A DNA stretch of 64,000 nucleotides from an uncultured Patescibacteria group bacterium (GCA_934699595.1 CAKUWT010000002.1:37065-101064), one strand, 5' to 3'. Counted from the stretch's first letter, positions 1,431 through 64,000 are shown. Translations and numbers: made by a program. Notes: a model not told the origin generated them from the sequence alone.

Positions 1431-1456
1431 AATCCTAATTAAATAATCCCACTACC

Positions 1457-4386: not shown

Positions 4387-4479
4387 GATATTTTGTATTA
4401 AAAAGTTCAGATAATTAATTGATAAAAGTTTATAAAAATAAAATGTAAAAAGTGTTCTCGACAGAGAACACTTTTTAGC

Positions 4480-6240: not shown

Positions 6241-6303
6241 CAGAATAGAAATGCCCTCGCTAGTTAGCAAGGGCATTTTTAACAAATAGGGACTAGAGTT
6301 AAG

Positions 6304-6633
6304 TTAAAGTTTTTTTTCGAACTCAACCAAGAGAGCCAGCTTCCGTCTCAGTTCTCGTTTTGGATCTTGAGACCGTAGTAACCAAGCATGATTTTGCCAA
6401 GCGTGGCGGTAGCATTCACGGTTATGGAAAAAGAAGGGATGACCCCAGATAAACATCCGGAGGTGTTTCGGAGATTCTTCGCAGATAGCTCCGCGACAGC
6501 CGCAGATGCAAAGACCGTCCCTGTTGGTAAAGTTGAAAACGTGGTCGAGTACCGCAGCTCGATCTTCTCGATGGATAATCTTCCAGTACTGTTGATCTCC
6601 AGTCTGGTCAACCATCATGTTGCTGTAGTCCAT
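6304..6633 (-). CDS. Small Cys/His-rich protein; possible YHS/TRASH-like metal-binding fold; paralog 1
   Basis: 109 aa. It shares R.AVLDHVFNF..R...CICGC...H..M.IWG...FFH...C.R.A...DP..ELRR.LA with 6820..7131. An AGGAGG SD sits 8 nt upstream of the ATG. Confidence 0.45.
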   Translation of the reverse strand: MDYSNMMVDQTGDQQYWKIIHREDRAAVLDHVFNFTNRDGLCICGCRGAICEESPKHLRMFIWGHPFFFHNRECYRHAWQNHAWLLRSQDPKRELRRKLALLVEFEKKL

Positions 6634-6768
6634 TTTCCCCTACCTCCTGATTCTGATTCAGATCTGAAGAGAAGCTTACTGAATGTAGTAATTGGTGTCA
6701 ACTCATTGCCAAGTATCCCGCCCCGACTGTTTTGCTGGTCAGGGTTGTTTACGCTTTGGATTTAAAAA

Positions 6769-6793
6769 ACGGGTCCAGAATTTCTGGACCCGT
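6769..6793 (-). terminator. Hairpin terminator between the two paralogs
   Basis: ACGGGTCCAG-AATTT-CTGGACCCGT stem-loop flanked by an A/T run. Confidence 0.5.
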
Positions 6794-6819
6794 AATGGTG
6801 TCACTGTGGTCGGTACACA

Positions 6820-7131
6820 TTACATGATGACGTGTACCGCTAGGCGGCGCCTAAGCTCGTGCCGGGGATCTTTTCCTCGCTTCACAGTTTCGAGAACTTT
6901 TCTCGCGCGCCGGTGGCAGCGGAGCGAGTGAAAGAAATAGGCTCGTCCCCAGATACTCATTTTAGAGTGGTCTCCCAGACCACGATGGCGAATAGGTTGT
7001 CCGCAGCCGCAGATACAGACATCGCGCCTGTCTGCAAAATTGAAAACATGGTCAAGCACGGCCGTGCGGTTTTTTTCACGTATTATCACATCGCACTTGT
7101 TGCTGGTGTCGAACAGGTTGACAATATTCAT
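6820..7131 (-). CDS. Small Cys/His-rich protein; paralog 2 of 6304..6633
   Basis: 103 aa with the same conserved CICGC/FFH..C motif. A GAGGAGAGG SD lies upstream of the ATG. Confidence 0.45.
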   Translation of the reverse strand: MNIVNLFDTSNKCDVIIREKNRTAVLDHVFNFADRRDVCICGCGQPIRHRGLGDHSKMSIWGRAYFFHSLRCHRRARKVLETVKRGKDPRHELRRRLAVHVIM

Positions 7132-7260
7132 TCGTCCTCTCCTCTTGCTGAAACTTTCTTCTAGGTAAAATCATACTCAGCCGGAGCGCCAGTGTCAATT
7201 TTTGGTACTCATATATAGATGAGTACCAAAGTACATATTATCTTCTAACTAACAAAACAC

Positions 7261-7284
7261 GCCCCCGAGACTGGACTCGGGGGC
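7261..7284 (-). terminator. Rho-independent terminator
   Basis: GCCCCCGAG-ACTGGA-CTCGGGGGC stem, followed on the minus strand by a T-rich tract. Confidence 0.6.
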
Positions 7285-7303
7285 GCTATGGGTGGTGACA
7301 GCT

Positions 7304-7690
7304 TCAGTAAGCAAGATAGCCGATTCGCATACCGTTGCTCCAAGCCTCCACAATTTGAAAAGTGATTCCCCGGCGGCTGGTCCAGTGTCCAATAGGACGT
7401 TGGTAAATGGGGGTTGGCATCACCACGAAACCGCAGCCGGGACCACTGGGGCTGAGTGCCTGTCTCCGAACATGGACCTTGTTGAGAAATGAGTGTAAGT
7501 TTCTCTTTGAGGTACAGACAGACAGAGCATTCCTCAGAATGATACCTTGGGCTAGGTGAAGATCGGCCGCAGCTGCCTGGTTGGTAAATACCGCCGTGGT
7601 GACCTCGGCGGCGGCCCCGATTGAAGGGTTGCCAAGCAGTAAAGTCGCCGAAGTCAGTAATGTACTGATGACCTTTTTGAAAAAAGACAT
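7304..7690 (-). CDS. Hypothetical secreted protein with an N-terminal signal peptide
   Basis: 128 aa beginning MSFFKKVISTLLTSATLLLGNPSIGAAAE. An AAGGGAGG SD lies 7 nt upstream of the ATG. Preferred over the overlapping 189-aa R/S/P/G-rich ORF. Confidence 0.5.
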   Translation of the reverse strand: MSFFKKVISTLLTSATLLLGNPSIGAAAEVTTAVFTNQAAAADLHLAQGIILRNALSVCTSKRNLHSFLNKVHVRRQALSPSGPGCGFVVMPTPIYQRPIGHWTSRRGITFQIVEAWSNGMRIGYLAY

Positions 7691-7853
7691 GACGTGCCTC
7701 CCTTGTGTCTGATGTCTTCCGACTTTGATTAGACCATATTTTAATTAGAAAAACAATAAGTGCTGTTATTATGGTTAGGGAGTAAAAAGAACGGGAACGC
7801 GGATGCTTTTGCATCCGCGCCCTCGTTCCTTATTAGGGTCCATAGAGTAGCCT

Positions 7854-11022: not shown

Positions 11023-11205
11023 AATTAATTATTTATTTTTATCTATTAAAACAAAACTTCATCTCCTTAGGTGGTTCTTACATCCTTCCGAGTGAGCGTG
11101 GTTTCGCTGCTGCTATTAAAGCATATTTATAAGCAAAAACAAGTACTCGTGCTTACAAATACTGACTTTTGATGAAAGTTACAAAATAGCTTATATTAAG
11201 AAGTA

Positions 11206-11997
11206 ATGAAAATTTATTCTTGGAATGTGAACGGCATTCGCTCAGTGTACAGTAAAGGGCTGCTACAAAGCTTTATTAAGGAACACAATCCCGATATTCT
11301 TTGCTTACAAGAAACCAAAGCACAGCCAGAGCAGGTAGATTTTGTACTACCTGATTATAAGGAGTATTGGTGTTCAGCCACAAGGAAGGGCTACTCCGGT
11401 ACCGCTATTTATACCAAGGTTGCTCCGCGGCAGGTGTTATGCGGTTTTTCTAATGCGGTACAAAAGAAGCATCAGGTTGTTGATATTTACGGAGACGCTG
11501 CCACTGAAGGTCGGGTAACCACATTAGAGTTTGAGGATTACTACGTGGTCTCGGTCTATGTACCAAATGCTAAAGATGACCTGAGCCGTATCCCTCTCCG
11601 TGTACAGTGGGATGCTGCCCTGTTAGATTATTTGTTGGAATTGGAAAAAACCAAGCCCGTCCTTTGTGGTGGTGATTTTAACGTCGCTCATCAGGAGATT
11701 GACCTGGCTAGGCCAAAGCCGAATAGAGGCAAGAAGGGCTTCACTGATGAGGAGAGACAGGGTTTTACTAACTTCATTGAGAATGGTTTTTTTGATGCTT
11801 GGCGTACTTTGCATCCAGAGCAGACTGACGTCTACACCTGGTGGTCCCATTACGCCCAATCAAGAGCCCGGAATGTCGGTTGGCGGATAGACTATTGGTT
11901 AGTTTCCAACAAATTAAAGAAACAATTACTGCAAGCTGAAGTTCACGCCACTGTTATGGGTAGTGACCACTGCCCGGTTTCAATCACTCTTAAATGA
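11206..11997 (+). CDS. xth: Exodeoxyribonuclease III (AP endonuclease)
   Basis: 263 aa beginning MKIYSWNVNGIRS with the ExoIII/EEP-fold motifs. Confidence 0.9.
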   Translation: MKIYSWNVNGIRSVYSKGLLQSFIKEHNPDILCLQETKAQPEQVDFVLPDYKEYWCSATRKGYSGTAIYTKVAPRQVLCGFSNAVQKKHQVVDIYGDAATEGRVTTLEFEDYYVVSVYVPNAKDDLSRIPLRVQWDAALLDYLLELEKTKPVLCGGDFNVAHQEIDLARPKPNRGKKGFTDEERQGFTNFIENGFFDAWRTLHPEQTDVYTWWSHYAQSRARNVGWRIDYWLVSNKLKKQLLQAEVHATVMGSDHCPVSITLK

Positions 11998-50814: not shown

Positions 50815-51222
50815 ATGGCAACAATCAATCAATTAACCAAAAAGAAACGGGTTGACCCAGCTCGCAAACGCAAGACGGGTGCTTTGTACATGGGCTTTGA
50901 CTCAGTAGAGAACAAGCCTAACTACTACAATTCACCTTTCAAGCGTGGCGTCTGTACGCGTGTGACCACCAAGACTCCACGTAAGCCGAACTCAGCGATT
51001 CGTAAAATCGCTCGTGTCCGTCTTTCTAACGGCTTGGAAATTACCGCCTACATTCCTGGTATTAAGCACACTCTGCAAGAACACTCCGTAGTGTTGGTGC
51101 GAGGAGGACGTGTGAAGGATATTGGTGTGAACTACACCATTGTCCGCGGAAAATACGATGCGACTGGTGTTAGCGAGCGCCGACGAGGACGCTCAAGATA
51201 TGGTGCAAAGAAACCTAAATAA
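50815..51222 (+). CDS. rpsL: 30S ribosomal protein S12
   Basis: 135 aa with [52 protein letters not shown]. Confidence 0.95.
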
Positions 51223-51421
51223 ACTTTAATCATAAAAAGTTTAGGGATCCGTACACCAAAATAGTTTATATTCGCTACAGATAAACGACTGCGATACAGA
51301 GGTAGGACCTTTGGTATCAAGAATATGCGAAGAATGAAAAAGTCAGCTTTTAAAATAATAAGTTTGCCTCTCTCATTCTTAATTACTTACTAAATTAAGA
51401 ACTTAAGTTTACTAAAACTAT

Positions 51422-51895
51422 ATGCGACGACCAGTAAAAAAGAAGCCAGTCGTAAAGCCAGACGTTAAGTATGGCTCTATCGATGTGGAGCGCTTGATCA
51501 ATTACATCATGCTCCATGGTCAGAAGGAAACCGCCCGCAAAATCGTTTATGGTGCTTTCGCTGAAATCGAAAGTCGTAAAGATGGCGGCGGTGATCCGGT
51601 GGAAATGTTTAATACTGCGCTGCGGAACGCCGGTCCGTTGATGGAGGTGCGCTCTCGTCGAGTGGGTGGAGCCAACTACCAAGTGCCGCGAGAAGTGCGG
51701 CCAGAGCGTCGGGTATCTCTCGCTTTGCGTTGGATTATCAACGCGGCCCGCGGACAAAAAGGTGTCCCGATGTACAAAGCCTTGGCAAGTGAAATCCTGC
51801 TGGCTGCTAAAGAAGAGGGAACTGCTGTGAAGCGACGCGATGATATGCACAAGATGGCAGAAGCCAACCGAGCCTTTGCTCACTTTGCTTGGTAG
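51422..51895 (+). CDS. rpsG: 30S ribosomal protein S7
   Basis: 157 aa with an S7-typical sequence. Confidence 0.95.
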   Translation: MRRPVKKKPVVKPDVKYGSIDVERLINYIMLHGQKETARKIVYGAFAEIESRKDGGGDPVEMFNTALRNAGPLMEVRSRRVGGANYQVPREVRPERRVSLALRWIINAARGQKGVPMYKALASEILLAAKEEGTAVKRRDDMHKMAEANRAFAHFAW

Positions 51896-52010
51896 TAATC
51901 CTGTCAACTGCTTTAAAGTCAAAGCCCCGTTCTCATGAACGGGGCTTTGACTTTATCCCTATCATAATTACCAAAAATGGTGTAGGGTAAGCTTTCATTC
52001 AACCTATGAT

Positions 52011-53492
52011 ATGTCACGACCAGAAGGCGTAATTGTTTTTAAAGAAGTGGGTTTTGAGTACGACTCTACCCGACCGATTCTCCGCGAGGCGAGTTTTGTG
52101 GTGCGCCGTGGCGCCAAACTGACGCTAATGGGACAAAACGGGGCTGGAAAGAGTACTATTTTCTCCCTCATTACCGGAAAATTAGCCACTGATGAGGGTA
52201 GTATTAACTTGCCGCCTCGTACCACCATTGCCATTGCGCGCCAGATTATTCCTCGGGAAGAATTGCTGCTGACGGTGCGTGATTTTTTCCTGGAGAGTTT
52301 TAGCGAAAAGGTTTATGATATAGACCCACGGATTGATGCAGTCTTGGAAATCGTCAACCTGACTCCAACTGAGAAGCAACGTAGTACTTTTAAGGATAGG
52401 ATTGTTGGCACTTTTTCTGGCGGACAACAGGCCCGGCTGTTGTTGGCGCAGGCTTTAATTCAGAACCCAGATATTTTATTACTTGATGAACCGACTAATA
52501 ACTTAGATCGGAGCGGTATTGAGCAACTGACTACTTTTTTGAAAGAGTACCGCAAGACGGTGCTGGTTATTTCTCACGACGCTGACTTTTTAAACGCTTT
52601 TACCGAAGGAATTCTTTATTTAAATACCCAAACCAGAACGGTGGAGCAGTACGTGGGTAATTATCACGCCGCTCTGAAACTAATCGCCGCCCAAGTCGAG
52701 CGTGAGCAAAGACAGAATACTTTACTGGAAAAAGAAATTAGAGACAAGAAAGACAAGGTCAACTACTTCGCCAATAAGGGCGGTAAGATGCGCCTATTAG
52801 CCAAACGGATGCGGGAGGATATTGCCGAGGCAGAGGAAGATAAGGTGGAGGTGCGTCGCGAGGACCGCACTATTCGTGACTTCACCATCCCGAAACAGGA
52901 TAACTTACCCACCACGGTGCTAACTTTAGATAATTACCAGGTGATTAAAAACCACGAACCAAAAGTAGTAACTTGCGACCTGGTGCTGAAAAAAGGGGAG
53001 CATCTGCAGATTATTGGCCCCAACGGGATTGGTAAGACCACTTTGTTGGAGCGCTTAGCTAATGATGAGACTAATGAGTACGTGGCCGCTGGCGTTAAAG
53101 TCGGTTATTATCGCCAGGATTTTTCTAACTTAAATTTTGAGAAAACTGTCCTACAAATTCTCGAAGAGGCCTTGAGTAGTCGCAATGAAGAGGCTGTTAG
53201 GTCGCGAGCGTCCGGATTTTTGCTGACCGCGGAAATTATGAAGACCAAAGTTGGCCATTTATCAGAAGGACAGAAGGGTTTGGTGGCGTTTGCTAAGCTG
53301 GTTTTGGAAGCTCCTGGCTTGCTGATTCTGGACGAGCCCACCAACCATATCAATTATCGGCACTTGCCAGTGATTGCCAAAGCTTTGGATCAGTACGAAG
53401 GGGCGCTGATTTTGGTCTCGCACGTGCCGGAGTTTGTGGCCAAAGTACGGATTGATACGGTTCTGGATTTAGGAAAGAAAATCCGTAAGTAA
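52011..53492 (+). CDS. ABC-F family ATPase (tandem ABC domains, no TM domain)
   Basis: 493 aa with two Walker A motifs (GQNGAGKST; GPNGIGKTT), two LSGGQ/LSEGQ signatures and a charged inter-domain linker. Confidence 0.8.
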   Translation: MSRPEGVIVFKEVGFEYDSTRPILREASFVVRRGAKLTLMGQNGAGKSTIFSLITGKLATDEGSINLPPRTTIAIARQIIPREELLLTVRDFFLESFSEKVYDIDPRIDAVLEIVNLTPTEKQRSTFKDRIVGTFSGGQQARLLLAQALIQNPDILLLDEPTNNLDRSGIEQLTTFLKEYRKTVLVISHDADFLNAFTEGILYLNTQTRTVEQYVGNYHAALKLIAAQVEREQRQNTLLEKEIRDKKDKVNYFANKGGKMRLLAKRMREDIAEAEEDKVEVRREDRTIRDFTIPKQDNLPTTVLTLDNYQVIKNHEPKVVTCDLVLKKGEHLQIIGPNGIGKTTLLERLANDETNEYVAAGVKVGYYRQDFSNLNFEKTVLQILEEALSSRNEEAVRSRASGFLLTAEIMKTKVGHLSEGQKGLVAFAKLVLEAPGLLILDEPTNHINYRHLPVIAKALDQYEGALILVSHVPEFVAKVRIDTVLDLGKKIRK

Positions 53493-53551
53493 TGACTATT
53501 TAGTGTTTCTGATAAATTAGGTACTTGCCCGGCAGAATTGGGAGTAGGTTA

Positions 53552-53580
53552 TTGACATCCGTACTTAAATATGCTATATT
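53552..53580 (+). promoter_or_regulatory. Canonical sigma-70-type promoter for the GC-rich minigene
   Basis: TTGACA (53552-57), 17-nt spacer, TATATT (53575-80). A GGGAGG SD at 53607-12 lies 7 nt before the ATG. Confidence 0.55.
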
Positions 53581-53619
53581 AGAAGGAGTAAAGGATTGTT
53601 ATTTCTGGGAGGAATATCG

Positions 53620-53946
53620 ATGTGTAAGATCGAGCGGCGTGAAATTGCGCTGGAGACCAGCACGGTCTTCGTCTCCGACAGGCATGACTGCCCGTACTCG
53701 GAGCGGTATTGTACCGCTCTCCCCGAGTACGGGGAAAGTGATCAGGTCTCTGACCTGATCGCCGCCGCTTTCGACCGCCGGGCCGAGCGGGAACGCTTGG
53801 CCGCTCTGAAGAGGTGCCGCGGTCGCGGCCGCTCCGGGTGGAGGCCGCTGCGCATCCACGATTACCGTAGCGGACAGCCGACCATTTCGGTTGAGGCCGA
53901 GGCTGATGCTGAAGAGTTCGCCAGCTATGCTGACTTCGACGTGTAG
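53620..53946 (+). CDS. Small hypothetical protein encoded by a visibly GC-rich, compositionally foreign segment
   Basis: 108 aa (MCKIERREIALETST...). It has a strong promoter, an SD and a downstream terminator. GC content by eye is well above that of the flanks. Confidence 0.5.
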   Translation: MCKIERREIALETSTVFVSDRHDCPYSERYCTALPEYGESDQVSDLIAAAFDRRAERERLAALKRCRGRGRSGWRPLRIHDYRSGQPTISVEAEADAEEFASYADFDV

Positions 53947-54049
53947 GATCTTTTGCTTGACGAAGCTGGGTGGCTGGCGGAGATGATTCTCCCCCAGAGA
54001 CCCGGCGCCAGTCTTGATCTGAGGTAACACCTCCGATCGTTCAAATTAA

Positions 54050-54077
54050 GGCCGCCAGCTCGCTGGCGGCTTTTTTC
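54050..54077 (+). terminator. Rho-independent terminator of the GC-rich minigene
   Basis: GCCGCCAGC-TCG-CTGGCGGC followed by TTTTTT. Confidence 0.65.
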
Positions 54078-54122
54078 TGTGTCAGGTAGTTTCTAGAGAT
54101 ATTTTTGCTATAATGCACCTAT

Positions 54123-54689
54123 ATGAAAAATATTATTATTGTCGGATTGGGGTTGGTGGTCGTAGTCTTGTTAGTCTGGGCTTTTATGACGGGTAAGCTT
54201 GGATTTGGCACACCGGTAGCGACCGTGCCGGGAGAAGAAACAAGTACCACTACCGACAATCCCGCGACTGAGACTGGTGAAGCTGAAGACAGTGATGCCG
54301 ACGAGCAGTGGGTGGCCAGTTACTTGCCCGCCATTGACGCTTTGGCTGATAAGATTACCGTTAGTTCGGTTACTCCGGGCACGGTAATAACTTCGCCAGT
54401 AACCATCGCAGGAGAGGCTCGAGGTCCTTGGTATTTTGAAGCTAGTTTTCCAGTTTTCCTCAATAATTGGGATGGTCTGACGATCGCCACTGGTGTCGCA
54501 ACCGCCCAAAGTGATTGGATGACTGAAGACTTTGTCCCATTCACACTATCCTTAAGTTTTGTTAATCCGTACCAGGTTGGTGACCCTGATTTTATGAAAA
54601 AGGGCACGCTGATACTTAAGAAAGACAATCCTTCTGGCTTACCCGCCAATGACGCCAGTTTAGAGGTGCCGATTTTCTTCGCCAACTAG
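54123..54689 (+). CDS. Membrane-anchored secreted protein with a Gmad2-like immunoglobulin-like domain
   Basis: 188 aa with an N-terminal anchor, an acidic T/E/D-rich linker and a beta-rich C-terminal domain. Confidence 0.45.
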   Translation: MKNIIIVGLGLVVVVLLVWAFMTGKLGFGTPVATVPGEETSTTTDNPATETGEAEDSDADEQWVASYLPAIDALADKITVSSVTPGTVITSPVTIAGEARGPWYFEASFPVFLNNWDGLTIATGVATAQSDWMTEDFVPFTLSLSFVNPYQVGDPDFMKKGTLILKKDNPSGLPANDASLEVPIFFAN

Positions 54690-54867
54690 TTTGGTGACTG
54701 CCGCGGACGGGTGACGTGCCGTTGCCGTTTCGTCATTAATGCGTTATAGTACCTCCGTCTTGTCATTTTATGACGGTACTCTTTTCTATCAGCCGTGCGC
54801 AATTTTGTGAACAAAGAGACGGAAGGAGGTTTAGCAACAATCAATTAAATTTTAATAACTTTATTTT

Positions 54868-57039
54868 ATGGCCCGAGAGTTTCCTATTGAGCGCACCCGC
54901 AACTTTGGAATTGTAGCGCACGTTGATGCTGGAAAGACCACGACCTCTGAGCGTGTACTTTTCTTTACTGGTATGACCCATAAATTGGGTGAAACCCATG
55001 ATGGCGCATCTGTGACCGACTGGATGGAGCAAGAACGCGAGCGTGGTATCACGATTACGGCGGCGGCAATTTCTTGTAACTGGTCCAAGTCTGACGTGGT
55101 GGATCGTACCGATAAATCACAAATGTATACCTTCAATGTTATCGACACCCCGGGCCACATCGACTTTACCGCTGAGGTGAAGCGGTCAATGCGCGTTTTG
55201 GACGGCGCCGTGACCGTCTTTGACTCGGTGGCAGGAGTGGAGCCGCAATCAGAGACCAACTGGGCTTATGCTGATGAGGCGGGAGTACCACGATTGTGCT
55301 ACATCAATAAGATGGACAAACTCGGCGCTGACTTCAATAAGGCCTACCAAACCATTGTCAGTCGCTTGTCTAGCAAAGCTGTGCGCGCCCAAATACCGTG
55401 GGGCAAGGAGGATAGTCTCAAGGGAGTGATTGATTTACTGACTCGAAAAGCCTACACCTTCGAAGGTAATATGGGCATGGAAATTAAGGAGCATGAGGTG
55501 CCTGAGGAATATCGCGAGGAAATGGAAGAGTTACGTGCCGAATTGATTGAGCGCATTGTGGAGCATGATGACGCTGCTATGGAAGCTTTTTTGGAAGGCG
55601 AAGAGCCGAGCTTGGAAGATCTGAAGAAGATCATGCGTAAAGCGGTGTTGGCTAATGAAATCTTCCCGGTTTATACTGGTTCCTCATTGAAAAATATCGG
55701 CGTACAGCTAATCCTTGATGCTGTGGTGGACTACCTGCCGTCACCAGTTGATTTGCCGCCAGTGCACGGTATCAATCCTAAAGATGATAGTGAAATTGAG
55801 CGTAAGCCAAGCGACGCTGAGCCATTTGCCGCCCTGTCTTTCAAATTGCAAACTGACCCGTTTGTGGGGCAGCTTACCTTTTTCCGAGTTTATTCGGGTG
55901 TGATTAAAGCTGGTAGTTATATTTATAACGCCAATACTGGTAAAAAGGAGCGACTCGGACGGATCGTACGTCTTCAGGCTGACAAGCGTACTGAAATTGA
56001 GGAAGTTTACGCTGGTGAAATTGCTGCTGGAGTTGGGTTGAAAGATATTAAGACGTCACATACTCTTTGTGACGAGAATAACCCGATTATTCTAGAGCAG
56101 ATCACTTTCCCAGAACCGGTGATCGCCCTTCGAGTGGAGCCGAAAACTAAGAACGACCAGGAGAAAATGGGTGTCGCTCTTAAAAAGTTGGCTGATGAAG
56201 ACCCGACTTTTAAAGTATCTACTGACCCAGAAACGATGGAAACAATTATTGCGGGTATGGGCGAGCTACACCTTGAGGTGTTGGTGGACCGGATGAAGCG
56301 TGAGTTTAACGTGGAGGCTAATGTGGGTACGCCACAAGTAGCTTATCGTGAGACCATTCAACGGGAAGCGGAAGCCGATTATAAGTACGTTAAGCAGTCT
56401 GGCGGTCGGGGGCAATATGGACATGTCAAGATTCGTATTAAACCAATGGAGCCGCTGGCTGAGGGTGAAACTGTGGCCAAGAACGTTACTCGTGAAGATC
56501 ACTTTGAGTTCATCAACAGTATCAAGGGAGGGGTGGTGCCACAGGAGTACATTCCAGCTGTGGTAAAAGGTGCGCGCGAAGCGATGGCCCGTGGACAGGT
56601 GGCAGGATACAAAATGGAGGATGTCTCAGTTGAGCTTTACGACGGTAGCTACCATGATGTTGACTCCTCAGAAATTGCCTTTAAGTTAGCCAGTATTTAT
56701 GCTTTCCGGGACGCGGCTAAGAAAGCTAACGCCGTCTTGCTAGAGCCAGTGATGAAGGTAGAAATCCGCACCCCAGAAGAATACCTTGGTGATATTAACG
56801 GTAATATTTCTAGTAAGCGAGGTCACGTGGAGAGTATGGGAGAGATTGGCGACAAGCGCGTCATTACTGCCAAAGTACCACTATCAGAAATGTTTGGTTA
56901 TACCAATACCTTGCGCTCAATGACTCAAGGGCGAGCTACTAACATGATGGAGTTTGATCACTACGCCGTGGTGCCACCAAATATTGCTGATGAGATTAAG
57001 AAAGTGCGTGGGGTCAAGGACGTGGTCGACGAAGATTAG
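54868..57039 (+). CDS. fusA: Elongation factor G
   Basis: 723 aa with G-domain motifs AHVDAGKTT and DTPGH, and full five-domain length. Confidence 0.95.
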   Translation: MAREFPIERTRNFGIVAHVDAGKTTTSERVLFFTGMTHKLGETHDGASVTDWMEQERERGITITAAAISCNWSKSDVVDRTDKSQMYTFNVIDTPGHIDFTAEVKRSMRVLDGAVTVFDSVAGVEPQSETNWAYADEAGVPRLCYINKMDKLGADFNKAYQTIVSRLSSKAVRAQIPWGKEDSLKGVIDLLTRKAYTFEGNMGMEIKEHEVPEEYREEMEELRAELIERIVEHDDAAMEAFLEGEEPSLEDLKKIMRKAVLANEIFPVYTGSSLKNIGVQLILDAVVDYLPSPVDLPPVHGINPKDDSEIERKPSDAEPFAALSFKLQTDPFVGQLTFFRVYSGVIKAGSYIYNANTGKKERLGRIVRLQADKRTEIEEVYAGEIAAGVGLKDIKTSHTLCDENNPIILEQITFPEPVIALRVEPKTKNDQEKMGVALKKLADEDPTFKVSTDPETMETIIAGMGELHLEVLVDRMKREFNVEANVGTPQVAYRETIQREAEADYKYVKQSGGRGQYGHVKIRIKPMEPLAEGETVAKNVTREDHFEFINSIKGGVVPQEYIPAVVKGAREAMARGQVAGYKMEDVSVELYDGSYHDVDSSEIAFKLASIYAFRDAAKKANAVLLEPVMKVEIRTPEEYLGDINGNISSKRGHVESMGEIGDKRVITAKVPLSEMFGYTNTLRSMTQGRATNMMEFDHYAVVPPNIADEIKKVRGVKDVVDED

Positions 57040-57090
57040 GCGCGCCAATTCTAAAGAAAGCACCTAATCGTCGCTTAATAAAAAATAATT

Positions 57091-57130
57091 AAAATCCCTC
57101 TCACCCGAGAGGGATTTTAATTATTTTTTA
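57091..57130 (+). terminator. Rho-independent terminator after fusA
   Basis: AAAATCCCTCTC-ACCC-GAGAGGGATTTT followed by a T-run. Confidence 0.65.
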
Positions 57131-57225
57131 TCAACAACTTTACGTTGCCTATGTCAACAGAGGAGGGAAGTGTGACATAATAAACTGAACTTAATAGTTA
57201 GTTAAATTAAAATATTATTATTGGT

Positions 57226-57846
57226 ATGACCGTCTCATCTTTCTTCAAAAGCACCGCCCTCCTCGGAATGGTTGCCTTTGGCCTATTAGCCTACAACTTT
57301 ATCCAAGCTTCTTGGACAGCGCCTACAGCGACTCCTCCTGGGGGCAACACTGATAGACCGATTAACGTTGGTAGTATTTATCAAGCTAAGTCTGGTGACC
57401 TTGGTGCTATCCGCATGCGGGCAGGACAGTATTGTAATGCGGCGGGGACGAAGTGTTTTACAGCTGATCAGGTGGAGGGGCTAGTTAAAGCTGGCGGTAC
57501 GGTGACTCCTCCAGGTGGTACACCGACTGACATTTTGCGAAGGGAGAGTGGGCGAGCAACTATTGCTACCGAGTCATACGGTTTTGGGTCACGCAATTCT
57601 GGTACTAGAGCTAAGCCTGTTTCCGTCAGTTTTGGTAAATCATTTACTAGCGTTCCGATGGTGCAAGTCACAACTGCAGATGGTCGCAACCTTGTTGATG
57701 CTCCAGTAGCTGTTTCCCGAACTGGCTTTATAGTGACAATTCCGCAAGACTGCAGCACTTCCACTCACGGCTCGGGTGAGGCCGAGACTACCCGATGTAA
57801 TCCTCGCTACACCGGATCGCTAAACTGGAATGTTATTGGCAATTAA
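57226..57846 (+). CDS. Secreted or anchored protein with an H-type-lectin-like C-terminal domain; paralog 1
   Basis: 206 aa. The first roughly 78 codons are nucleotide-identical to 62505... The C-terminus (VSFGKSFTSVPMVQVTTADG...VSRTGFIVT) resembles the H-type lectin beta-sandwich. Confidence 0.5.
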   Translation: MTVSSFFKSTALLGMVAFGLLAYNFIQASWTAPTATPPGGNTDRPINVGSIYQAKSGDLGAIRMRAGQYCNAAGTKCFTADQVEGLVKAGGTVTPPGGTPTDILRRESGRATIATESYGFGSRNSGTRAKPVSVSFGKSFTSVPMVQVTTADGRNLVDAPVAVSRTGFIVTIPQDCSTSTHGSGEAETTRCNPRYTGSLNWNVIGN

Positions 57847-57854
57847 TAAAAAAT

Positions 57855-59081
57855 ATGCAAGATTCACCTTTAAATCATCTGAGAAACACCTCGCTTATTG
57901 TCGCCACCTTTTTACTAGGTGCTTTTCTCGCTACGTTATTTTTGTTACCGGTGGCAGTTACTGCAGCAGAGTCACCTTTTGATAGTAATGTGCCTCTGAC
58001 TGGATACGCATGGAGTAGTAACATCGGTTGGATTTCTTTTAACTGCCAAACAGGCGGTAACTCGGGAGGTAATATTTGTGCTACTAGTAATTATAAAGTG
58101 GAGATTAAAACTGACGGTACGCTCTCAGGCTACGCTTGGAGTAGTAACATTGGTTGGATTAAGTTTGGCGGGCTGAGCGCCATTCCTAGTGGTCCTGGTA
58201 ATGCGGCTAATAATGCCCAACTAGTTAGTGTTGGCAGTGATAAGTATGAGTTACAGGGTTGGGTTCGAGTCTGTTCCTCAAACTCAGCCGCTGGGTCTTG
58301 TAATTTTGGAGTGACTCGTAACGAAGGCTGGGATGGTTGGATTTCTCTAAAGGGGACCAGTCCTAACTACACCACTGAGTTTACCAGCGCTGGCGTAGTT
58401 AAAACTCCGGTCGGTTACGCTTGGGGCAGTAGTGTAGTGGGTTGGATTGGTATGACTCATCTCGATATTGAGGCTCCTGAGGCTATTAAAATTACTAGTT
58501 TCAAAAAAGGCGCTGGTGAAACATTGGCGACAGATGGTTCAGAGACTTATGACAATGTTACGTTAGTTGCCACGGTTACTGGAGTTGATACGGGTAAGAG
58601 CGTGCCGTATACCGTTACTGTTAATGGGGTGACAAAAACTGGTACTTATAAAGCCGATAGTCCAACAACTGGTACCTTTACCCCAGCGCTGAAGTTTGAC
58701 GGCGTACCCGCTAATGTGCCCGTGACGGCTATCTTGAGAGTGGGTACTGCAAAGAATTATGACGAAAAAACCATCACCCTCAATCTTGTGGCGGCTGCTG
58801 CTACCGTGAGTCTGAAAGCTCAGCCAGATCTCGTCCGCCCTGGCTCGACCTCAAACCTAAGGTGGACAGTTTCTAGTCCGCAGGATGTTTCTTGTCAGAT
58901 TACTGGTGGGGGAATGGATAAGACTGTTAACATAGCCGGTGGAACCCCGGACACTGGTAGCGTTGACACCAATGTGATAAATAACCTTACCCGGTTCACG
59001 ATCACGTGTTCTGGAGCAGGAGTAATCACAACTAGCGAGTCGACAACAGTAAGTGTGGTACCTTACGTAATGGAGAGATAA
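57855..59081 (+). CDS. Secreted repeat-containing surface protein
   Basis: 408 aa with an N-terminal signal/anchor and three copies of a GYAWSSNIGWI(S/K)F-type motif. The C-terminal half is T/V/G-rich and beta-like. Confidence 0.5.
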   Translation: MQDSPLNHLRNTSLIVATFLLGAFLATLFLLPVAVTAAESPFDSNVPLTGYAWSSNIGWISFNCQTGGNSGGNICATSNYKVEIKTDGTLSGYAWSSNIGWIKFGGLSAIPSGPGNAANNAQLVSVGSDKYELQGWVRVCSSNSAAGSCNFGVTRNEGWDGWISLKGTSPNYTTEFTSAGVVKTPVGYAWGSSVVGWIGMTHLDIEAPEAIKITSFKKGAGETLATDGSETYDNVTLVATVTGVDTGKSVPYTVTVNGVTKTGTYKADSPTTGTFTPALKFDGVPANVPVTAILRVGTAKNYDEKTITLNLVAAAATVSLKAQPDLVRPGSTSNLRWTVSSPQDVSCQITGGGMDKTVNIAGGTPDTGSVDTNVINNLTRFTITCSGAGVITTSESTTVSVVPYVMER

Positions 59082-59110
59082 TTAATCAAAAAATATTATA
59101 AATTGTAGAT

Positions 59111-59443
59111 ATGGAACTAATTAGAGAGAAAAAAGTATTTTGGTTATCGGCGGCGATCCTCATCTTCATGCTGATGCTAATTGGCATCTATATAGTTATC
59201 GGTATCGAATCTGCTAAAAGACATTCTCAGCCTGACTTAGTAGATGATCAGTCTGGGGGCATGTTAGATGATAGCGCTGAGCGTCAAGCTATTTGGGAGG
59301 ATCTGAACCAGGAGGCGCCTGAGATGGCCCCGGAAGAAGTAGAGGAAATTATTTCTGATCTAGATAATCCTACTAGCGTTGACATGGAGGAGGCAGAGAG
59401 GCAGCAAATTGCGGAGGAATTATCGATTGGCTTGGGGGAATAA
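59111..59443 (+). CDS. Small membrane-anchored acidic protein
   Basis: 110 aa with one TM helix and a D/E-rich tail. A terminator at 59462-59500 follows. Confidence 0.4.
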   Translation: MELIREKKVFWLSAAILIFMLMLIGIYIVIGIESAKRHSQPDLVDDQSGGMLDDSAERQAIWEDLNQEAPEMAPEEVEEIISDLDNPTSVDMEEAERQQIAEELSIGLGE

Positions 59444-59810
59444 TCTTGGGTATTGTAGACAAAAAAATAAGCCGCGGGCAAAGCCCGCGGCTTATTTTTC
59501 ATCAGGCACCATCCCTAAAGCCGCTCTCACCCAGTAGAAAATCACTTGAGAAAGGAGGGTAATTTAGTCAATAGTAAGAGACGAGAGGGCTAGTAGGGTG
59601 GTCGTTGGTTGCGCCAGCATTATTCTCGTGCTACACTCCCTCTCAGCGTTTAAGACCTATGTTCGCTAATTGCTCCCTTGCGGAGCAAGAGAACCACTGG
59701 GCACAATTAACCGTGCCTAATGCTATGCCGACGAAAGTCTGTTAGCTGAGGACGGTTTTTGTTTTTAGGTTTCCGGTCTAGCGCTTTTATTAGCATAAGT
59801 GAAAATAACA

Positions 59811-60431
59811 ATGAAATTTATTGTTGGCACTAAGGAGCGCATGACGCAGATTTTTGACGCTGACGGCGTTTGTCATCCTGCCACCGTGCTCCGAGTGGAA
59901 TCGGCAGCCATCACTCGTATTAAAACCAAAGATTCCGATGGTTACGATGCGGTGCAGGTGGCGACTGGTGTAAAAAAAGACCACCGTGTACGTCGCGCCG
60001 ACAAAGGTCAGCACGAGACTGCTGAGACAGTGCGTGAGTGGCGACCAAAAAGTATTTATGGTGAGGATATTACCGGCTTGACGGTCGGGCAAACCTTGAA
60101 TGCTGAGACTTTTGCTGCTGGCGATAAGATTGCTGTGTCGGCTGTCTCTAAAGGTAAAGGTTTTCAGGGAGTGGTTAAGCGTCACAACTTTGCTGGTGGC
60201 CCACGAACGCACGGTCAGAAGCACTCTGAACGTCGCTCTGGTTCAATCGGTTCCACTGGTAATATGCGCGTGCTGAAGGGTACTCGCATGGCCGGTAGGA
60301 TGGGTGGCGACCGGATTACGGTCAAGAATCTCACTGTACTGCAGGTAGATGCTGCTAACAACTTATTACTGGTGAAGGGCGCTGTCCCTGGTCGAAAAGG
60401 AACTTTAGTAGAAGTGCGTGGCGCTAATTAA
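59811..60431 (+). CDS. rplC: 50S ribosomal protein L3
   Basis: MKFIVGTKERMTQIFD... is L3-typical. The start is taken at the ATG at 59811, not the upstream GTG at 59799. Confidence 0.9.
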   Translation: MKFIVGTKERMTQIFDADGVCHPATVLRVESAAITRIKTKDSDGYDAVQVATGVKKDHRVRRADKGQHETAETVREWRPKSIYGEDITGLTVGQTLNAETFAAGDKIAVSAVSKGKGFQGVVKRHNFAGGPRTHGQKHSERRSGSIGSTGNMRVLKGTRMAGRMGGDRITVKNLTVLQVDAANNLLLVKGAVPGRKGTLVEVRGAN

Positions 60432-60435
60432 ATAA

Positions 60436-61119
60436 ATGATTATGAAAATTAATGTTTATTCTAGTACAGGAACTACTAAAGGGGAGTTTAATCTTCCGGA
60501 GCAGGTTTTTGCTCTACCTTGGAATGGAGATTTGGTGCACGATGTGGTGACATCCATGCAAGCCAATGCTCGGGCTGGGACTGCTCACACTAAGGACCGT
60601 GGTGAGGTGCGTGGTGGTGGTAAAAAACCATGGCGTCAGAAAGGAACTGGTCGTGCCCGTCATGGTTCTCGTCGCAGCCCGATCTGGGTTGGTGGTGGAG
60701 TTACTCATGGACCACGTAACGAGCGTGATTACAAAGTCAAGATAAATAAGAAAGTGAAAGCGAAGGCTTTGGGGATTATTCTCAGCCGCAAATTAGCTGA
60801 TACCGAAATTATTGCTTTGGATAGTTTAGCACTATCGGAAATGAAAACTGCTAAAGCGGTAGAGGTGGTAACAGCGGTGGCCAAGGCTTCAGAGGCAAGC
60901 GCCTTAGCTACTAAGAAGCAGAATGCTGCCTTGGTAATCTTGCCAGAGCGTGATGAGGTTGCGGAAAAAAGCTTCCGCAACTTAGGACAATTCTCGGTAA
61001 TGCAAGCCAAGGACATTAGTCCAGTTGATTTACTAACCTATAAATACGCTGTGTTAGTCAACCCGGAAGCGACGGTAGAAATTCTTTCTGCGCGTGTGCT
61101 GCCGATGGTGACTAACTAG
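60436..61119 (+). CDS. rplD: 50S ribosomal protein L4
   Basis: 227 aa with L4-typical features (GGGKKPWRQKGTGRARHGS). Confidence 0.9.
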   Translation: MIMKINVYSSTGTTKGEFNLPEQVFALPWNGDLVHDVVTSMQANARAGTAHTKDRGEVRGGGKKPWRQKGTGRARHGSRRSPIWVGGGVTHGPRNERDYKVKINKKVKAKALGIILSRKLADTEIIALDSLALSEMKTAKAVEVVTAVAKASEASALATKKQNAALVILPERDEVAEKSFRNLGQFSVMQAKDISPVDLLTYKYAVLVNPEATVEILSARVLPMVTN

Positions 61120-61132
61120 CGAAGAAATTGTT

Positions 61133-61483
61133 ATGGCCCTCTTTAGTCGAAAAAAATCAGAATCTACAGCGGCAACCGTGACCACTAGTCAGGCAACTGA
61201 TCGTAATCTAGAGGCGGTGATTATCCGTCCATTGATTACTGAGAAGGCACTCGGACAGAGCGATCGTCGAGTCTATGCTTTTCTAGTTCGTCGGGATGCT
61301 AATAAATTTGCTGTATCCGCTGCAGTAGCTGCGGTCTATAAAGTGACGCCGGTAAGGGTGAATATCGTTAACAAAGCACCAAAGCAAGTCAAATCACGCA
61401 CCCGCGGTCGAATGGTGTCAGAACGTGGTTACAAGAAAGCTTACGTCTACTTAAAAGCAGGCGATAGCATTAACCTAATCTAA
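61133..61483 (+). CDS. rplW: 50S ribosomal protein L23
   Basis: 116 aa; the position and sequence (IIRPLITEKA...) fit L23. Confidence 0.85.
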   Translation: MALFSRKKSESTAATVTTSQATDRNLEAVIIRPLITEKALGQSDRRVYAFLVRRDANKFAVSAAVAAVYKVTPVRVNIVNKAPKQVKSRTRGRMVSERGYKKAYVYLKAGDSINLI

Positions 61484-61488
61484 AGCAG

Positions 61489-62349
61489 ATGAAAAAATAT
61501 AACCCTACATCTCCTGGTCGTCGTGATGGTTCAGTAATCGAGTATCGCAAGAAACTCACCTCTACCACCAATCGCCCGCTAAAAAGTTTGACGCGCGGTC
61601 GTAAAAGTACTGGTGGACGCAATAGCTACGGACGTACTACAGTAGTGAGTCGTGGTGGCGGTCACAAGCGTACTTATCGCCAGATTGACTTTAAGTATGA
61701 TAAGAAAGATATTGCTGCTCGAGTGGAAAGTATCGAATACGACCCATTTCGCACTGGTTTTATTGCCCTGGTACTATATCGAGACGGTGAACGACGCTAC
61801 ATTCTCGCCCCACAGAAACTGACTCAGGGTGATGAAATCTTGGTTTCCGAAAAGGCTAAGATCGCTGTCGGTAACCGTTTGCCGCTCAAAGAGATTCCGG
61901 TCGGAACTTACGTGTACGGGATTGAAATTAATCCTGGTGCTGGTGCTCGACTGGCGCGAAGTGCGGGAAACTTTGCTGAAGTGGTTGCTCACGACGCTGG
62001 TTACACTACCGTCAAGCTGCCGTCTTCAGAAATCCGTAAAATTCACGGTACGGCCTGGGCTTCTGTCGGTGAGGTGTCTAACGAAGAAAATCGCTTAGTC
62101 ACTCTCGGCAAGGCTGGGCGTGCCCGACACGTTGGAATTCGACCGAAGACTCGGGGAAGTGCCATGAACGCCGTCGATCACCCACACGGTGGTGGTGAAG
62201 GTCGTTCGCCTCGTGGTCATCGCCGCGCTCGCACCAAACAAGGTCGTCCGGTTGGTAAAGGTCAGAAGACCCGCTCACCGAAGAAGCACTCTAATAAGTT
62301 TATTGTGCAGCGTCGGAAGCCAGGTCGCTTGATGACGAGCAAGAAGTAG
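61489..62349 (+). CDS. rplB: 50S ribosomal protein L2
   Basis: 286 aa with GRNSYGRTT...VDHPHGGGEGR. Confidence 0.95.
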   Translation: MKKYNPTSPGRRDGSVIEYRKKLTSTTNRPLKSLTRGRKSTGGRNSYGRTTVVSRGGGHKRTYRQIDFKYDKKDIAARVESIEYDPFRTGFIALVLYRDGERRYILAPQKLTQGDEILVSEKAKIAVGNRLPLKEIPVGTYVYGIEINPGAGARLARSAGNFAEVVAHDAGYTTVKLPSSEIRKIHGTAWASVGEVSNEENRLVTLGKAGRARHVGIRPKTRGSAMNAVDHPHGGGEGRSPRGHRRARTKQGRPVGKGQKTRSPKKHSNKFIVQRRKPGRLMTSKK

Positions 62350-62370
62350 TGCACCCTGTTCAGGTAAGTA

Positions 62371-62407
62371 AAAATAAAACACCTCCCCTCAGGAGGTGTT
62401 TTATTTT
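62371..62407 (+). terminator. Rho-independent terminator after rplB
   Basis: ACACCTCC-CCTCA-GGAGGTGT flanked by A/T runs. Confidence 0.6.
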
Positions 62408-62504
62408 ACCTCGCTATCAACAACTCCTCACTTTAGCTTGTAAAACATTAGTATCAGTGTGACATAATGTACTCATATCCGTAATTAGTTTACCTAGTCA
62501 AATA

Positions 62505-63347
62505 TTGCGTATGACCGTCTCATCTTTCTTCAAAAGCACCGCCCTCCTCGGAATGGTTGCCTTTGGCCTATTAGCCTACAACTTTATCCAAGCTTCTTGG
62601 ACAGCGCCTACAGCGACTCCTCCTGGGGGCAACACTGATAGACCGATTAACGTTGGTAGTATTTATCAAGCTAAGTCTGGTGACCTTGGTGCTATCCGCA
62701 TGCGGGCAGGACAGTATTGTAATGCGGCGGGGACGAAGTGTGTGACTGCCGACGGATTAATTGGTGGTGGCTCAGGGCAGGCAATGGCGATTGGCCGAGT
62801 GGCGATGACTGTTAATGCGGCGGGGAACCTAACTGTTGGTACGGTAACTTTTGATAAACCTTTTGATAAGGTGCCAAAAGTAGTGGCGTCAGTGCAAGAC
62901 GCTTATTACAATGGACCTTGTCGGGGTGACGAAATTATTTTCCGAGTTAATGTCCGTAGTGTATCCAGAACCGGATTTGTAGTAGAGGCCCCGTATGCTA
63001 CTGGTGGTTGTGGAACACGGAGAGTGGTCGGAGCGAGTTGGATAGCTTTGGCAGATGGTGGCGCCAACACCCTTGTGCGCACTTTTAGTGAAAATCAGAT
63101 GAAAAATGCTGTTAAAAAAGAGAATCCATCGGTAGCAACTGCTGACGCCGTACATGACACTCCGGGAAACCGCGCGGCTCTTTGTGAGTCACTATTTCCT
63201 GGCAGTAGCCCTACCAGAGCCACGACAGGATCATTCACTTCCCCTAGTAACAACACAGTTTACACTTTATCGGGCTTTACAGTTTGGACACGGGCGGGTG
63301 CTAGTGGACGTAATGTGACTTTGACTAGTTTGGAGTGTACCAGGTAG
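62505..63347 (+). CDS. Secreted or anchored H-type-lectin-like protein; paralog 2 with a C-terminal extension
   Basis: 280 aa. The 5' about 235 nt and the 13-nt upstream motif agtgtgacataat are identical to paralog 1. A lectin-like core (VTFDKPFDKVPKVVASV...VSRTGFVVE...SWIALADGG) is followed by an extra roughly 90 aa. Confidence 0.5.
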   Translation: MRMTVSSFFKSTALLGMVAFGLLAYNFIQASWTAPTATPPGGNTDRPINVGSIYQAKSGDLGAIRMRAGQYCNAAGTKCVTADGLIGGGSGQAMAIGRVAMTVNAAGNLTVGTVTFDKPFDKVPKVVASVQDAYYNGPCRGDEIIFRVNVRSVSRTGFVVEAPYATGGCGTRRVVGASWIALADGGANTLVRTFSENQMKNAVKKENPSVATADAVHDTPGNRAALCESLFPGSSPTRATTGSFTSPSNNTVYTLSGFTVWTRAGASGRNVTLTSLECTR

Positions 63348-63645
63348 TTATAAGTCACTTTAGTAACTAAAATTACAAAACGGCCACATTTTCTGTGGCT
63401 GGTTTTGGTTAAAGTGGTAAGTCTATACTTGCAAAAAAATCCTTATTTGTTAACATAGACCACACCGTACAGCAGAGTCTACTTAGTAACTTTGCGTGTC
63501 GGAGCAGAAAATATTTGGCTCTTTCACACTTACCTTAAGTGTACAGTGGTAACGCGCCGTTCTCGCGCCGTTACCAATGTATATTTAGGCTGGCTTATTA
63601 AAGACAGCAGTGCGGTTTATTAATTATCTATAAATTAAATTTATT

Positions 63646-64000
63646 ATGGCTGAAAATTATGATCGTTCCAAGCCGCACGTAAACGTTGGTACTATTGGTC
63701 ACGTTGACCATGGTAAGACTACTACCACGGCTGCTATCCTTACTGTCCTTAAAGCTCATGAAGCTGAGGGTTATGGAGCCAACGTGAAAGATGTGGCGGC
63801 TATCGACAAAGCGCCAGAGGAGAAGGCTCGCGGAATTACTATTTCCTTGTCTCACTCTGAGTACGAAACTCCTAAGCGTCATTACGCACATATCGATGCT
63901 CCTGGTCACGCTGACTATATTAAAAATATGATCACCGGTGCCGCCCAGATGGACGGGGCTATTTTGGTAGTATCAGCTACCGACGGTGCTATGCCGCAGA
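63646..64000 (+). CDS. tuf: Elongation factor Tu; N-terminal part, running off the window end
   Basis: [31 protein letters not shown]...[26 protein letters not shown]. It is not in the ORF track because no stop lies within the window. Confidence 0.9.

Follow-up and report, generated by a model that had tools for sequence, protein, structure and literature searches.

The subject of this analysis is the ribosomal str/S10 region at positions 50,815-64,000 of a 64,000-nucleotide (nt) stretch of DNA from an uncultured Patescibacteria group bacterium (GCA_934699595.1, CAKUWT010000002.1:37065-101064), referred to below as the window. Few gene arrangements in prokaryotes are as conserved as the str-S10-spc cluster, a stability commonly attributed to co-transcription and to the concatenation of its operons. 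In the window, which comes from a Paceibacteria genome, two blocks of this cluster, [tuf-rpsJ] and [rplC-rplD-rplW-rplB], have exchanged places, an order shared with a small clade of relatives. The genes of the stretch, identified by Pfam hidden Markov model (HMM) searches and with NCBIfam, and the predicted intrinsic terminators are as follows (window positions; aa, amino acids; ORF, open reading frame; GC, guanine plus cytosine):

50815-51222, plus strand, rpsL (S12; PF00164, E 4e-31)
51422-51895, plus strand, rpsG (S7; PF00177, E 5e-56)
51918-51951, plus strand, predicted terminator after rpsG (15-bp hairpin, -28.5 kcal/mol, then TTTAT)
52011-53492, plus strand, ABC-F-like ATPase with two ABC domains (PF00005 twice) and no membrane domain
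53620-53946, plus strand, GC-rich ORF of 108 aa (up to 75% GC, against ~47% for the window)
54048-54073, plus strand, predicted terminator after the GC-rich ORF (strong hairpin with U-run)
54123-54689, plus strand, Gmad2-like Ig-domain protein (PF10648, E 1.2e-7)
54868-57039, plus strand, fusA (EF-G; five EF-G domains)
57084-57125, plus strand, predicted terminator after fusA (19-bp hairpin, -25 kcal/mol, then a U-run)
57226-57846, plus strand, lectin-like 1, 206 aa (first 77 aa identical to those of lectin 2, remainder weakly H-lectin-like)
57855-59081, plus strand, secreted repeat protein, 408 aa, with GYAWSSNIGWI repeats
59111-59443, plus strand, membrane-anchored (transmembrane) acidic protein, 110 aa
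59467-59495, plus strand, predicted terminator after the acidic protein gene (13-bp GC-rich hairpin, -24.7 kcal/mol, then TTTTC)
59811-60431, plus strand, rplC (L3; PF00297; 206 aa in public records, identical to protein P0131)
60436-61119, plus strand, rplD (L4; PF00573, E 2e-59)
61133-61483, plus strand, rplW (L23; PF00276)
61489-62349, plus strand, rplB (L2; PF00181 and PF03947)
62375-62403, plus strand, predicted terminator after rplB (12-bp hairpin, -16.7 kcal/mol, then TTTTA)
62511-63347, plus strand, lectin 2, an H-type lectin domain protein (PF09458, E 1.4e-7)
63381-63401, plus strand, predicted terminator after lectin 2 (hairpin with U-run)
63646-64000, plus strand, tuf (EF-Tu; PF00009), cut by the window end

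A preliminary description of this DNA had given the same order from rpsL to tuf, and the HMM searches bear it out: genes for accessory and surface proteins break up the cluster, tuf lies downstream of rplB, and no S10 gene is found upstream of rplC. Its statement that each block has a terminator of its own also holds, as a prediction, since hairpins with U-runs follow the blocks. The distance from fusA to tuf is ∼6.6 kilobases (kb) and includes the rplC..rplB block and four of the predicted terminators; seven intervening ORFs lie within the part of the cluster that the window covers, and three more between rpsJ and rpsS. Lectin-like 1, the 408-aa repeat protein, the 110-aa acidic protein and the GC-rich ORF gave no significant family match. 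The most likely start codon is the ATG at 59811, and not position 59799, for rplC, and the ATG at 62511, and not position 62505, for lectin 2. When E. coli and B. subtilis queries were used in tblastn, neither S10 nor S19 was found to be encoded in the 64-kb window, and the 367-nt spacer 5′ of rplC contained no S10 ORF.

The preliminary description had noted that rpsJ is absent before rplC, and had proposed that it and rpsS be sought elsewhere in the assembly. Both were located on L084 (megahit contig k141_548800, 10.7 kb, from the same organism). The 118-aa EF-Tu fragment, used as a protein query, brought up nothing but short fragments of ≤88% identity, and exact look-ups of lectin-like 1, of protein P0121 and of full-length lectin 2 with either start gave no record; L084 was found through a lectin 2 product truncated at window position 62601, a truncation predicted from the assembly overlap at k=141. 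This contig is 100% identical to the window across an overlap of 1400 nt. On it, rpsJ begins 24 nt 3′ of tuf (398 aa), ∼870 nt beyond the window end; the gene has therefore not been lost, but lies directly after tuf, just outside the window, a finding that the preliminary description had itself named as one that would refute it. The tuf-rpsJ spacer of 24 nt compares with a median of ∼106 nt in relatives. Downstream of rpsJ come a strong predicted terminator, a 102-aa gene on the minus strand and two small ORFs, followed, 1.8 kb after rpsJ, by rpsS-rplV-rpsC-rplP-rpmC-rpsQ-rplN-rplX-rplE. No rplC..rplB block lies between rpsJ and rpsS on this single repeat-free contig, which contains no assembly break. 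Once L084 is added, all members of the str-S10 set are present (rpsL, rpsG, fusA, tuf, rpsJ, rplC, rplD, rplW, rplB and rpsS).

Relatives were collected as 80 GTDB species-representative loci plus 80 metagenome loci, anchored on L2 and annotated by tblastn with the window proteins. All 160 belonged to Paceibacteria or other Patescibacteria, the best L2 identity being 79%; the metagenome scan anchored on L2 yielded nothing closer, and closer relatives came from protein searches with lectin 2 and L3. Within the DNA retrieved, 160 of the 160 loci showed the canonical order rpsL-rpsG-fusA-tuf-rpsJ-rplC-rplD-rplW-rplB-rpsS-rplV-rpsC-rplP. The spacers within tuf-rpsJ, rplC..rplB and rpsS..rplP are tens of nt in these relatives. 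Larger gaps occur at four boundaries:

rpsG/fusA, gap >1 kb in 3 of 30 Paceibacteria loci, the largest 1.8 kb
fusA/tuf, gap >1 kb in 18 of 48 Paceibacteria loci, the largest 5.8 kb
rpsJ/rplC, gap >1 kb in 17 of 76 Paceibacteria loci, the largest 6.0 kb
rplB/rpsS, gap >1 kb in 36 of 85 Paceibacteria loci, the largest 8.4 kb

Since gaps of several kb are routine at these four boundaries, fragmentation of the cluster by accessory genes is typical of the lineage. In a few loci (L007, L018 and L035) the 8 kb ahead of the rplC block contain no rpsJ. One of them (L007 positions 1-8100, Kaiserbacteria RIFCSPHIGHO2_02_FULL_49_34) has atpD, a signal peptidase gene and genes for large surface proteins ahead of the rplC block; this block keeps its leader motif, and no fusA, tuf or rpsJ occurs within 8 kb. 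L007 is another, independent detachment of the rplC block.

The order seen in the window recurs in the closer relatives, whose identities to it are 82-84% for L2 and 76-77% for L3. In two contigs from the Joint Genome Institute (JGI), L165 (100 kb) and L166 (762 kb), in which L2, L3, EF-Tu and S10 are 84, 77, 89 and 88% identical to those of the window, fusA is followed by genes for a 405-aa repeat protein and a 118-aa acidic protein, then by rplC, rplD, rplW and rplB, one or more H-lectin genes, tuf, rpsJ, a 105-aa minus-strand gene and rpsS. The Logan contigs L167-L169, which come from several sequencing runs (L3 identity 76%), read ABC-F, 1051-aa protein, fusA, repeat protein, rplC..rplB, tuf, rpsJ, with no lectin gene between rplB and tuf. 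Orthologues of lectin 2 (48-51% identity) stand between rplB and tuf in L165 and L166, and orthologues of the repeat protein (49-54%) occupy the same place after fusA in L165, L166 and L167.

The canonical order is found in the next relatives. L170 (GCA_046293175.1, L3 identity 72%) has fusA, a 373-aa repeat protein, a 108-aa protein, tuf and rpsJ, then three lectin-like genes (a 398-aa ORF among them), rplC..rplB, a 234-aa protein, a 102-aa minus-strand gene and, further on, rpsS. L172 (GCA_043786675.1) has rpsJ, lectin-like genes and rplC..rplB, with the minus-strand gene again ahead of rpsS. In L087 the order is fusA, 352-aa repeat protein, 146-aa acidic protein, tuf, rpsJ, rplC..rplB, a 411-aa protein with a lectin-type N-terminus, the minus-strand gene and rpsS. 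In a simple neighbour-joining tree built on four proteins (L3+L4+L23+L2), the window, L165, L166 and L167 formed one clade in all 50 bootstraps; L170 and L172 were its sister group, and the other canonical genomes, among them the outgroup L087, fell outside. The exchange of [tuf-rpsJ] and [rplC-rplB] is thus confined to a small clade made up of the window and two other species-level lineages, one represented by L165 and L166 and one by L167-L169, and is a genuine synapomorphy of that clade. Since the derived order is common to independently assembled lineages while the sister clade is canonical, it is neither an artefact nor recent.

The flanking markers have kept their place: the genes of the repeat and acidic proteins still follow fusA, and the minus-strand gene still precedes rpsS. 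Throughout the family, the repeat protein and the small membrane-anchored acidic protein are encoded as a conserved pair immediately after fusA. The repeat protein, which has no family annotation, lies at 57855-59081 in the window, 4515-5732 in L166, 4052-5110 in L087 and 2695-3816 in L170; its orthologues after fusA in the canonical L087 and L170 are distant (29-35% identity). The acidic protein has a positional orthologue in L166 (23% identity, E 3e-6) and analogous genes at that position in L087 (146 aa) and L170 (108 aa), and was not called in L167. The minus-strand gene, ∼102-123 aa long and with a weak match to DUF2103, was present upstream of rpsS in every family member examined that covers this region, except L090, and is a useful marker for the right-hand breakpoint:

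L084 2757-3065, minus strand, upstream of rpsS
L005 12814-13131, minus strand, upstream of rpsS
L006 12561-12932, minus strand, upstream of rpsS
L008 4189-4506, minus strand, upstream of rpsS
L087 12304-12630, minus strand, upstream of rpsS
L166 12971-13288, minus strand, upstream of rpsS

These comparisons change part of the preliminary description, which had seen repeated insertion and rearrangement in the cluster. The rearrangement is true, but there is no sign of repetition, a single block exchange being sufficient, and the insertions are not special to this genome, as the same four boundaries are interrupted in relatives. A synteny comparison had been proposed there to tell a lineage-typical order from a recent one; the order is not universal in the lineage, all 160 loci being canonical, but is typical of the small clade. 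The implied recency does not stand, since the swap is common to the window and its closest lineages and absent from the sister clade and other relatives.

Each of the two exchanged blocks is preceded by conserved non-coding sequence:

59609-59637, plus strand, candidate promoter of the rplC operon (TTGCGC-17-TACACT with an upstream TG)
59651-59779, plus strand, candidate structured leader of rplC, containing a terminator-like hairpin (59710-59756) with a U-run
63494-63627, plus strand, conserved tuf leader, alignable upstream of tuf in L165/L166, L005, L006, L087 and L090

An equivalent promoter-like element, TTGnnn-17-TATACT, is conserved at the same distance in 7 relatives. Twelve family members share elements upstream of rplC, some being missing in the more divergent ones: the promoter, a helix AGACC...GGUC that closes the structure, then a variable hairpin, the conserved ACCAAUGGGCAC and, in most members, a long hairpin with a U-run 45-60 nt 5′ of the start codon. 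The promoter and the leader, which is specific to the family, lie directly upstream of rplC at these positions, among others:

L003 2895-3009, rplC promoter/leader
L004 2829-2942, rplC promoter/leader
L006 7994-8099, rplC promoter/leader
L008 127-246, rplC promoter/leader
L087 8141-8260, rplC promoter/leader
L166 6305-6404, rplC promoter/leader

RNAalifold applied to five relatives gave 45 pairs, 19 of them with compensatory changes, in a small sample (5 sequences) in which much of the paired region is the terminator hairpin. A covariance model made from these five matched only upstream of rplC, in 12 family members, when run on 1.4 Mb of related DNA; its match in the window is at 59651-59772 (E 0.09). 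The tuf leader (in relatives, L166 ∼11095-11231, L006 5198-5327, L005 3065-3132 and L087 ∼5809-5839) is ∼130 nt long and conserved in rearranged and canonical relatives, and contains a helix around GCG..GUUCUCGCGCC whose outer pairs covary. Its conservation in both arrangements indicates that the tuf block moved together with its leader; the rplC promoter and leader are likewise kept in both. Neither leader matched Rfam (57000-64000, E≤1 to 5); a scan of the whole window at the gathering threshold, taken with the looser scans of 57000-64000 and 53450-54150, gave only four tRNAs elsewhere and chance-level matches. Both leaders qualify as candidate new ribosomal-protein regulatory RNAs. The rplC leader may be an attenuator, possibly autoregulated by an encoded protein in the manner of the E. 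coli S10 leader. A further non-coding stretch of 158 nt, 79% identical between L084 4217-4372 (∼45 to 200 nt 5′ of rpsS) and L166 13318-13475, may represent a third module leader or promoter. A likeness between the terminator after the acidic protein gene and the rplB terminator of L006 appears to be a generic hairpin resemblance.

The explanation that best accommodates these results, to which we assign a probability of roughly 0.8, is that of a modular cluster that underwent a single swap on the stem of the clade, followed by the later gain of lectin-like 1. According to this reading, the cluster of this family would be a series of modules, [rpsL-rpsG], [fusA], [tuf-rpsJ], [rplC-rplD-rplW-rplB] and [rpsS-rplV-rpsC-...], rather than one concatenated super-operon. 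Each module would close with a predicted intrinsic terminator, and at least the tuf and rplC modules would open with a conserved promoter and leader of their own. The module boundaries are insertion hot spots across Paceibacteria, occupied mostly by genes for fast-evolving secreted or surface proteins such as lectin-like, repeat and acidic membrane proteins. The ancestor would have carried, from left to right, fusA, repeat protein, acidic protein, tuf-rpsJ, lectin genes, rplC..rplB, possibly another lectin gene, the 102-aa gene on the minus strand and rpsS. On the stem of the clade, [tuf-rpsJ] and its neighbour, the rplC..rplB block alone or together with a lectin gene, would have traded places with their orientation kept, yielding fusA, repeat protein, acidic protein, rplC..rplB, lectin, tuf-rpsJ, the 102-aa minus-strand gene and rpsS. 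The autonomy of the modules would have relaxed selection on the order of the blocks. Lectin-like 1 would have come in later, in the window lineage, between the genes of EF-G and of the repeat protein, and duplication or gene conversion would have made its first 233 nt identical to those of lectin 2.

The most likely route would be a segmental duplication of [tuf-rpsJ-lectin-rplC..rplB-lectin] with reciprocal loss, or else excision and reintegration. A tandem duplication followed by loss of the first tuf-rpsJ and of the second rplC..rplB, along the lines of the SNAP model of segmental duplication with asymmetric loss, would produce exactly the derived order with orientation preserved. Either route might have been seeded by recombination between paralogous lectin genes at module boundaries. 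Lectin paralogues with a conserved 5′ region do occur at the relevant boundaries in the sister clade; their presence there, and their recombination in the window, makes them plausible recombination substrates. The insertions found in relatives that retain the ancestral order, of which L087, L170 and L172 are examples, fit a pattern of insertion followed by disconnection.

The same derived order would also be seen if tuf and rpsJ had been moved in one step, a ∼2-kb cassette of leader, tuf, rpsJ and terminator being reinserted 3′ of rplB or of the lectin gene with no duplication intermediate, or if two overlapping inversions had had the same net effect. The ends of the module are clean, with the leader on one side and the strong terminator after rpsJ on the other, and no duplicate relics remain, both of which such a conservative move would explain. 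Taken jointly, these variants are nonetheless considered unlikely: in the window, L165 and L166 alike, the cassette is not bordered by a transposase, an integrase or inverted repeats, even a transient removal of the only tuf-rpsJ copy should be lethal, and non-homologous events of this kind are expected to be rare (PMC8046335). Replacement by a foreign tuf-rpsJ that landed 3′ of rplB, with loss of the native copy upstream of rplC, would leave an identical gene order too. It is made highly improbable by the sequences of the genes themselves, as EF-Tu and S10 are 89-90% and 87-90% identical to those of derived-order relatives against 84-87% and 78-82% to those of canonical ones, a ranking that matches that of the other ribosomal proteins; moreover, the tuf leader, which is non-coding, is homologous to those found in canonical relatives, and the GC content is unremarkable.

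Two further alternatives stem from a 233-nt perfect direct repeat that brackets the rplC..rplB block in the window:

57224-57456, plus strand, copy 1 of the direct repeat (covers the first 77 codons of lectin-like 1, start codon included)
62509-62741, plus strand, copy 2 of the direct repeat (5′ end of lectin 2)

The copies are identical over 233 nt, with an abrupt loss of homology 3′ of them and only ∼65% similarity upstream, which points to gene conversion of recent date or to a chimeric duplicate. In this organism, short-read assemblies (megahit with k=141, and Logan) break exactly at this repeat: the megahit contig L083 (A, 75 kb) stops at window position 57364, L001 (B) corresponds to 57316-62649 and L084 (C) begins at 62601, while one Logan contig corresponds to 57427-62538. 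That these contigs end within the repeat is what would be expected if it had misled the assembler and the true order were canonical. Against this, contig C continues unbroken from lectin 2 to beyond rpsS, taking in tuf and rpsJ on the way, and has no rplC..rplB between rpsJ and rpsS. Only two proteins with the repeat-encoded N-terminus were found, both on one 141,483-bp contig that is presumably that of the window, and a third was not found among 5.8 billion proteins; with two copies of the repeat (R), A-R-B-R-C is the sole linear path. Further, the derived order occurs in contigs of other lineages that contain neither lectin-like 1 nor flanking repeats. An artefact is thus extremely improbable, misassembly across the repeat being rejected on the grounds of contig C and of the derived-order relatives. 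The same perfect repeat flanking the rplC..rplB block might instead suggest a recent, strain-level scrambling of this one genome, close to what the preliminary description proposed. This, too, has very little probability, as L165, L166 and L167 show the same derived order without the repeat, at protein identities of only 76-84%, and the L165 and L166 contigs have no flanking repeats. None of the three has lectin-like 1 between fusA and the repeat protein gene; it was added later, and in the window lineage only. The absence of lectin-like 1 from the other derived-order genomes means that the 233-nt repeat arose after the swap, and it is ruled out as its cause.

Several points weigh against the preferred explanation of a single swap in a modular cluster. 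The two joins of the window (fusA to the rplC block, and rplB to tuf) cross the perfect repeat at which the other assemblies break, so that its exact path rests on there being only two copies. The phylogeny is a simple neighbour-joining tree of four proteins. The promoters, the terminators and the autonomy of the modules are predictions made from sequence. The count of tuf and rpsJ copies covers the cluster loci. Finally, when the spacers of the window, L165, L166 and L087 were searched by tblastn (E≤5), no tuf or rpsJ relic was found between the acidic protein gene and rplC, and no rplC..rplB relic after rpsJ. The route of the swap therefore stays inferred, duplication and loss having left no direct trace, although the absence of duplicate relics is expected after a long divergence.

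The canonical cluster, rpsL-rpsG-fusA-tuf / rpsJ-rplC-rplD-rplW-rplB-rpsS-..., has been analysed by Brandis et al. 2019 (PMC6735719) and Brandis 2021 (PMC8046335). In Gammaproteobacteria and Bacilli, genes insert between operons first and a later event disconnects them (PMC8046335; PMC6735719), the favoured route of disconnection being segmental duplication with asymmetric loss (PMC8046335). The history proposed here, with insertion first and separation or rearrangement afterwards, fits that pattern. The gene set, the orientation and the blocks tuf-rpsJ, rplC-rplD-rplW-rplB and rpsS-rplV-rpsC-rplP-... are those of the canonical cluster, but in the window the cluster is neither colinear nor contiguous. 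The breaks fall inside the classical S10 operon (rpsJ/rplC and rplB/rpsS) as well as between operons, and the two permuted blocks remain within ∼10 kb. Most of the inserted genes encode secreted or surface proteins. No description of this permutation was found in full-text literature searches, which is weak evidence of novelty.

In cyanobacteria, plastids and archaea, rps12-rps7-fus-tuf-rps10 form a str operon and the rplC cluster lies apart. The window cluster resembles this type in that rpsJ is tight to tuf (24 nt) and uncoupled from rplC, which heads its own unit. It differs in that tuf-rpsJ is detached from rpsL-rpsG-fusA and placed between rplB and rpsS, and in that the rplC block is cut off from rpsS. 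The candidate rplC leader may also parallel the leader of the E. coli S10 operon, which is subject to L4 attenuation: in both cases there is a 5′ leader with a terminator hairpin immediately ahead of the first gene of an operon that encodes L4. Here, however, the leader precedes rplC and not rpsJ, and has no Rfam match. The E. coli S10 leader is reported to be confined to Gammaproteobacteria (PMC3616713).

The finding is real, a modest clade-level oddity of gene order, of which the two conserved leaders are the most interesting by-products. It provides a clean, phylogenetically dated permutation of two blocks within the classical S10 operon, which arose where insertions had already split the cluster into units with putative terminators and leaders of their own. 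It fits the insertion-first, rearrangement-second model and extends it from Gammaproteobacteria and Bacilli to the Candidate Phyla Radiation (CPR). In Paceibacteria, pipelines can go astray when they rely on synteny of the ribosomal-protein block to concatenate markers, bin contigs or check scaffolds, since the block holds surface genes there and, in the present case, a 233-nt repeat that splits short-read assemblies. A broader possibility, which we put forward only tentatively, is that in this family concatenation has been replaced by autonomous modules, each under an undescribed structured leader of its own, and that this autonomy enabled the reshuffling; the rplC leader with its built-in terminator, possibly an autoregulatory attenuator of the L4/L3 type, and the tuf leader would be the instances at hand. 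If so, the clade would be a natural experiment in which the rpsJ-rplC and rplB-rpsS linkages prove dispensable.

Some observations concern neighbouring genes. The best NCBIfam model for the ATPase at 52011-53492 is NF000355 (ribosomal protection-like ABC-F), matched over its full length with 317 bits, below the 380-bit cutoff; an orthologue with 79% identity sits upstream of fusA in L167. The GC-rich ORF has its own promoter-like site at 53552-53580, sigma-70-like, which at 11 of 12 is ahead of all others in the region; from this site to the terminator the unit covers 53552-54073. The ORF matched neither Pfam nor NCBIfam, nor was there an Rfam match (53450-54150, E≤1 to 5), and its composition suggests a foreign origin. 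Lectin genes occur as tandem paralogues in L165 (9975-11571) and L166 (9089-10537); they are 72-75% identical, with near-identical short segments, and differ between these two otherwise nearly identical contigs, indicating a rapid turnover of surface genes.

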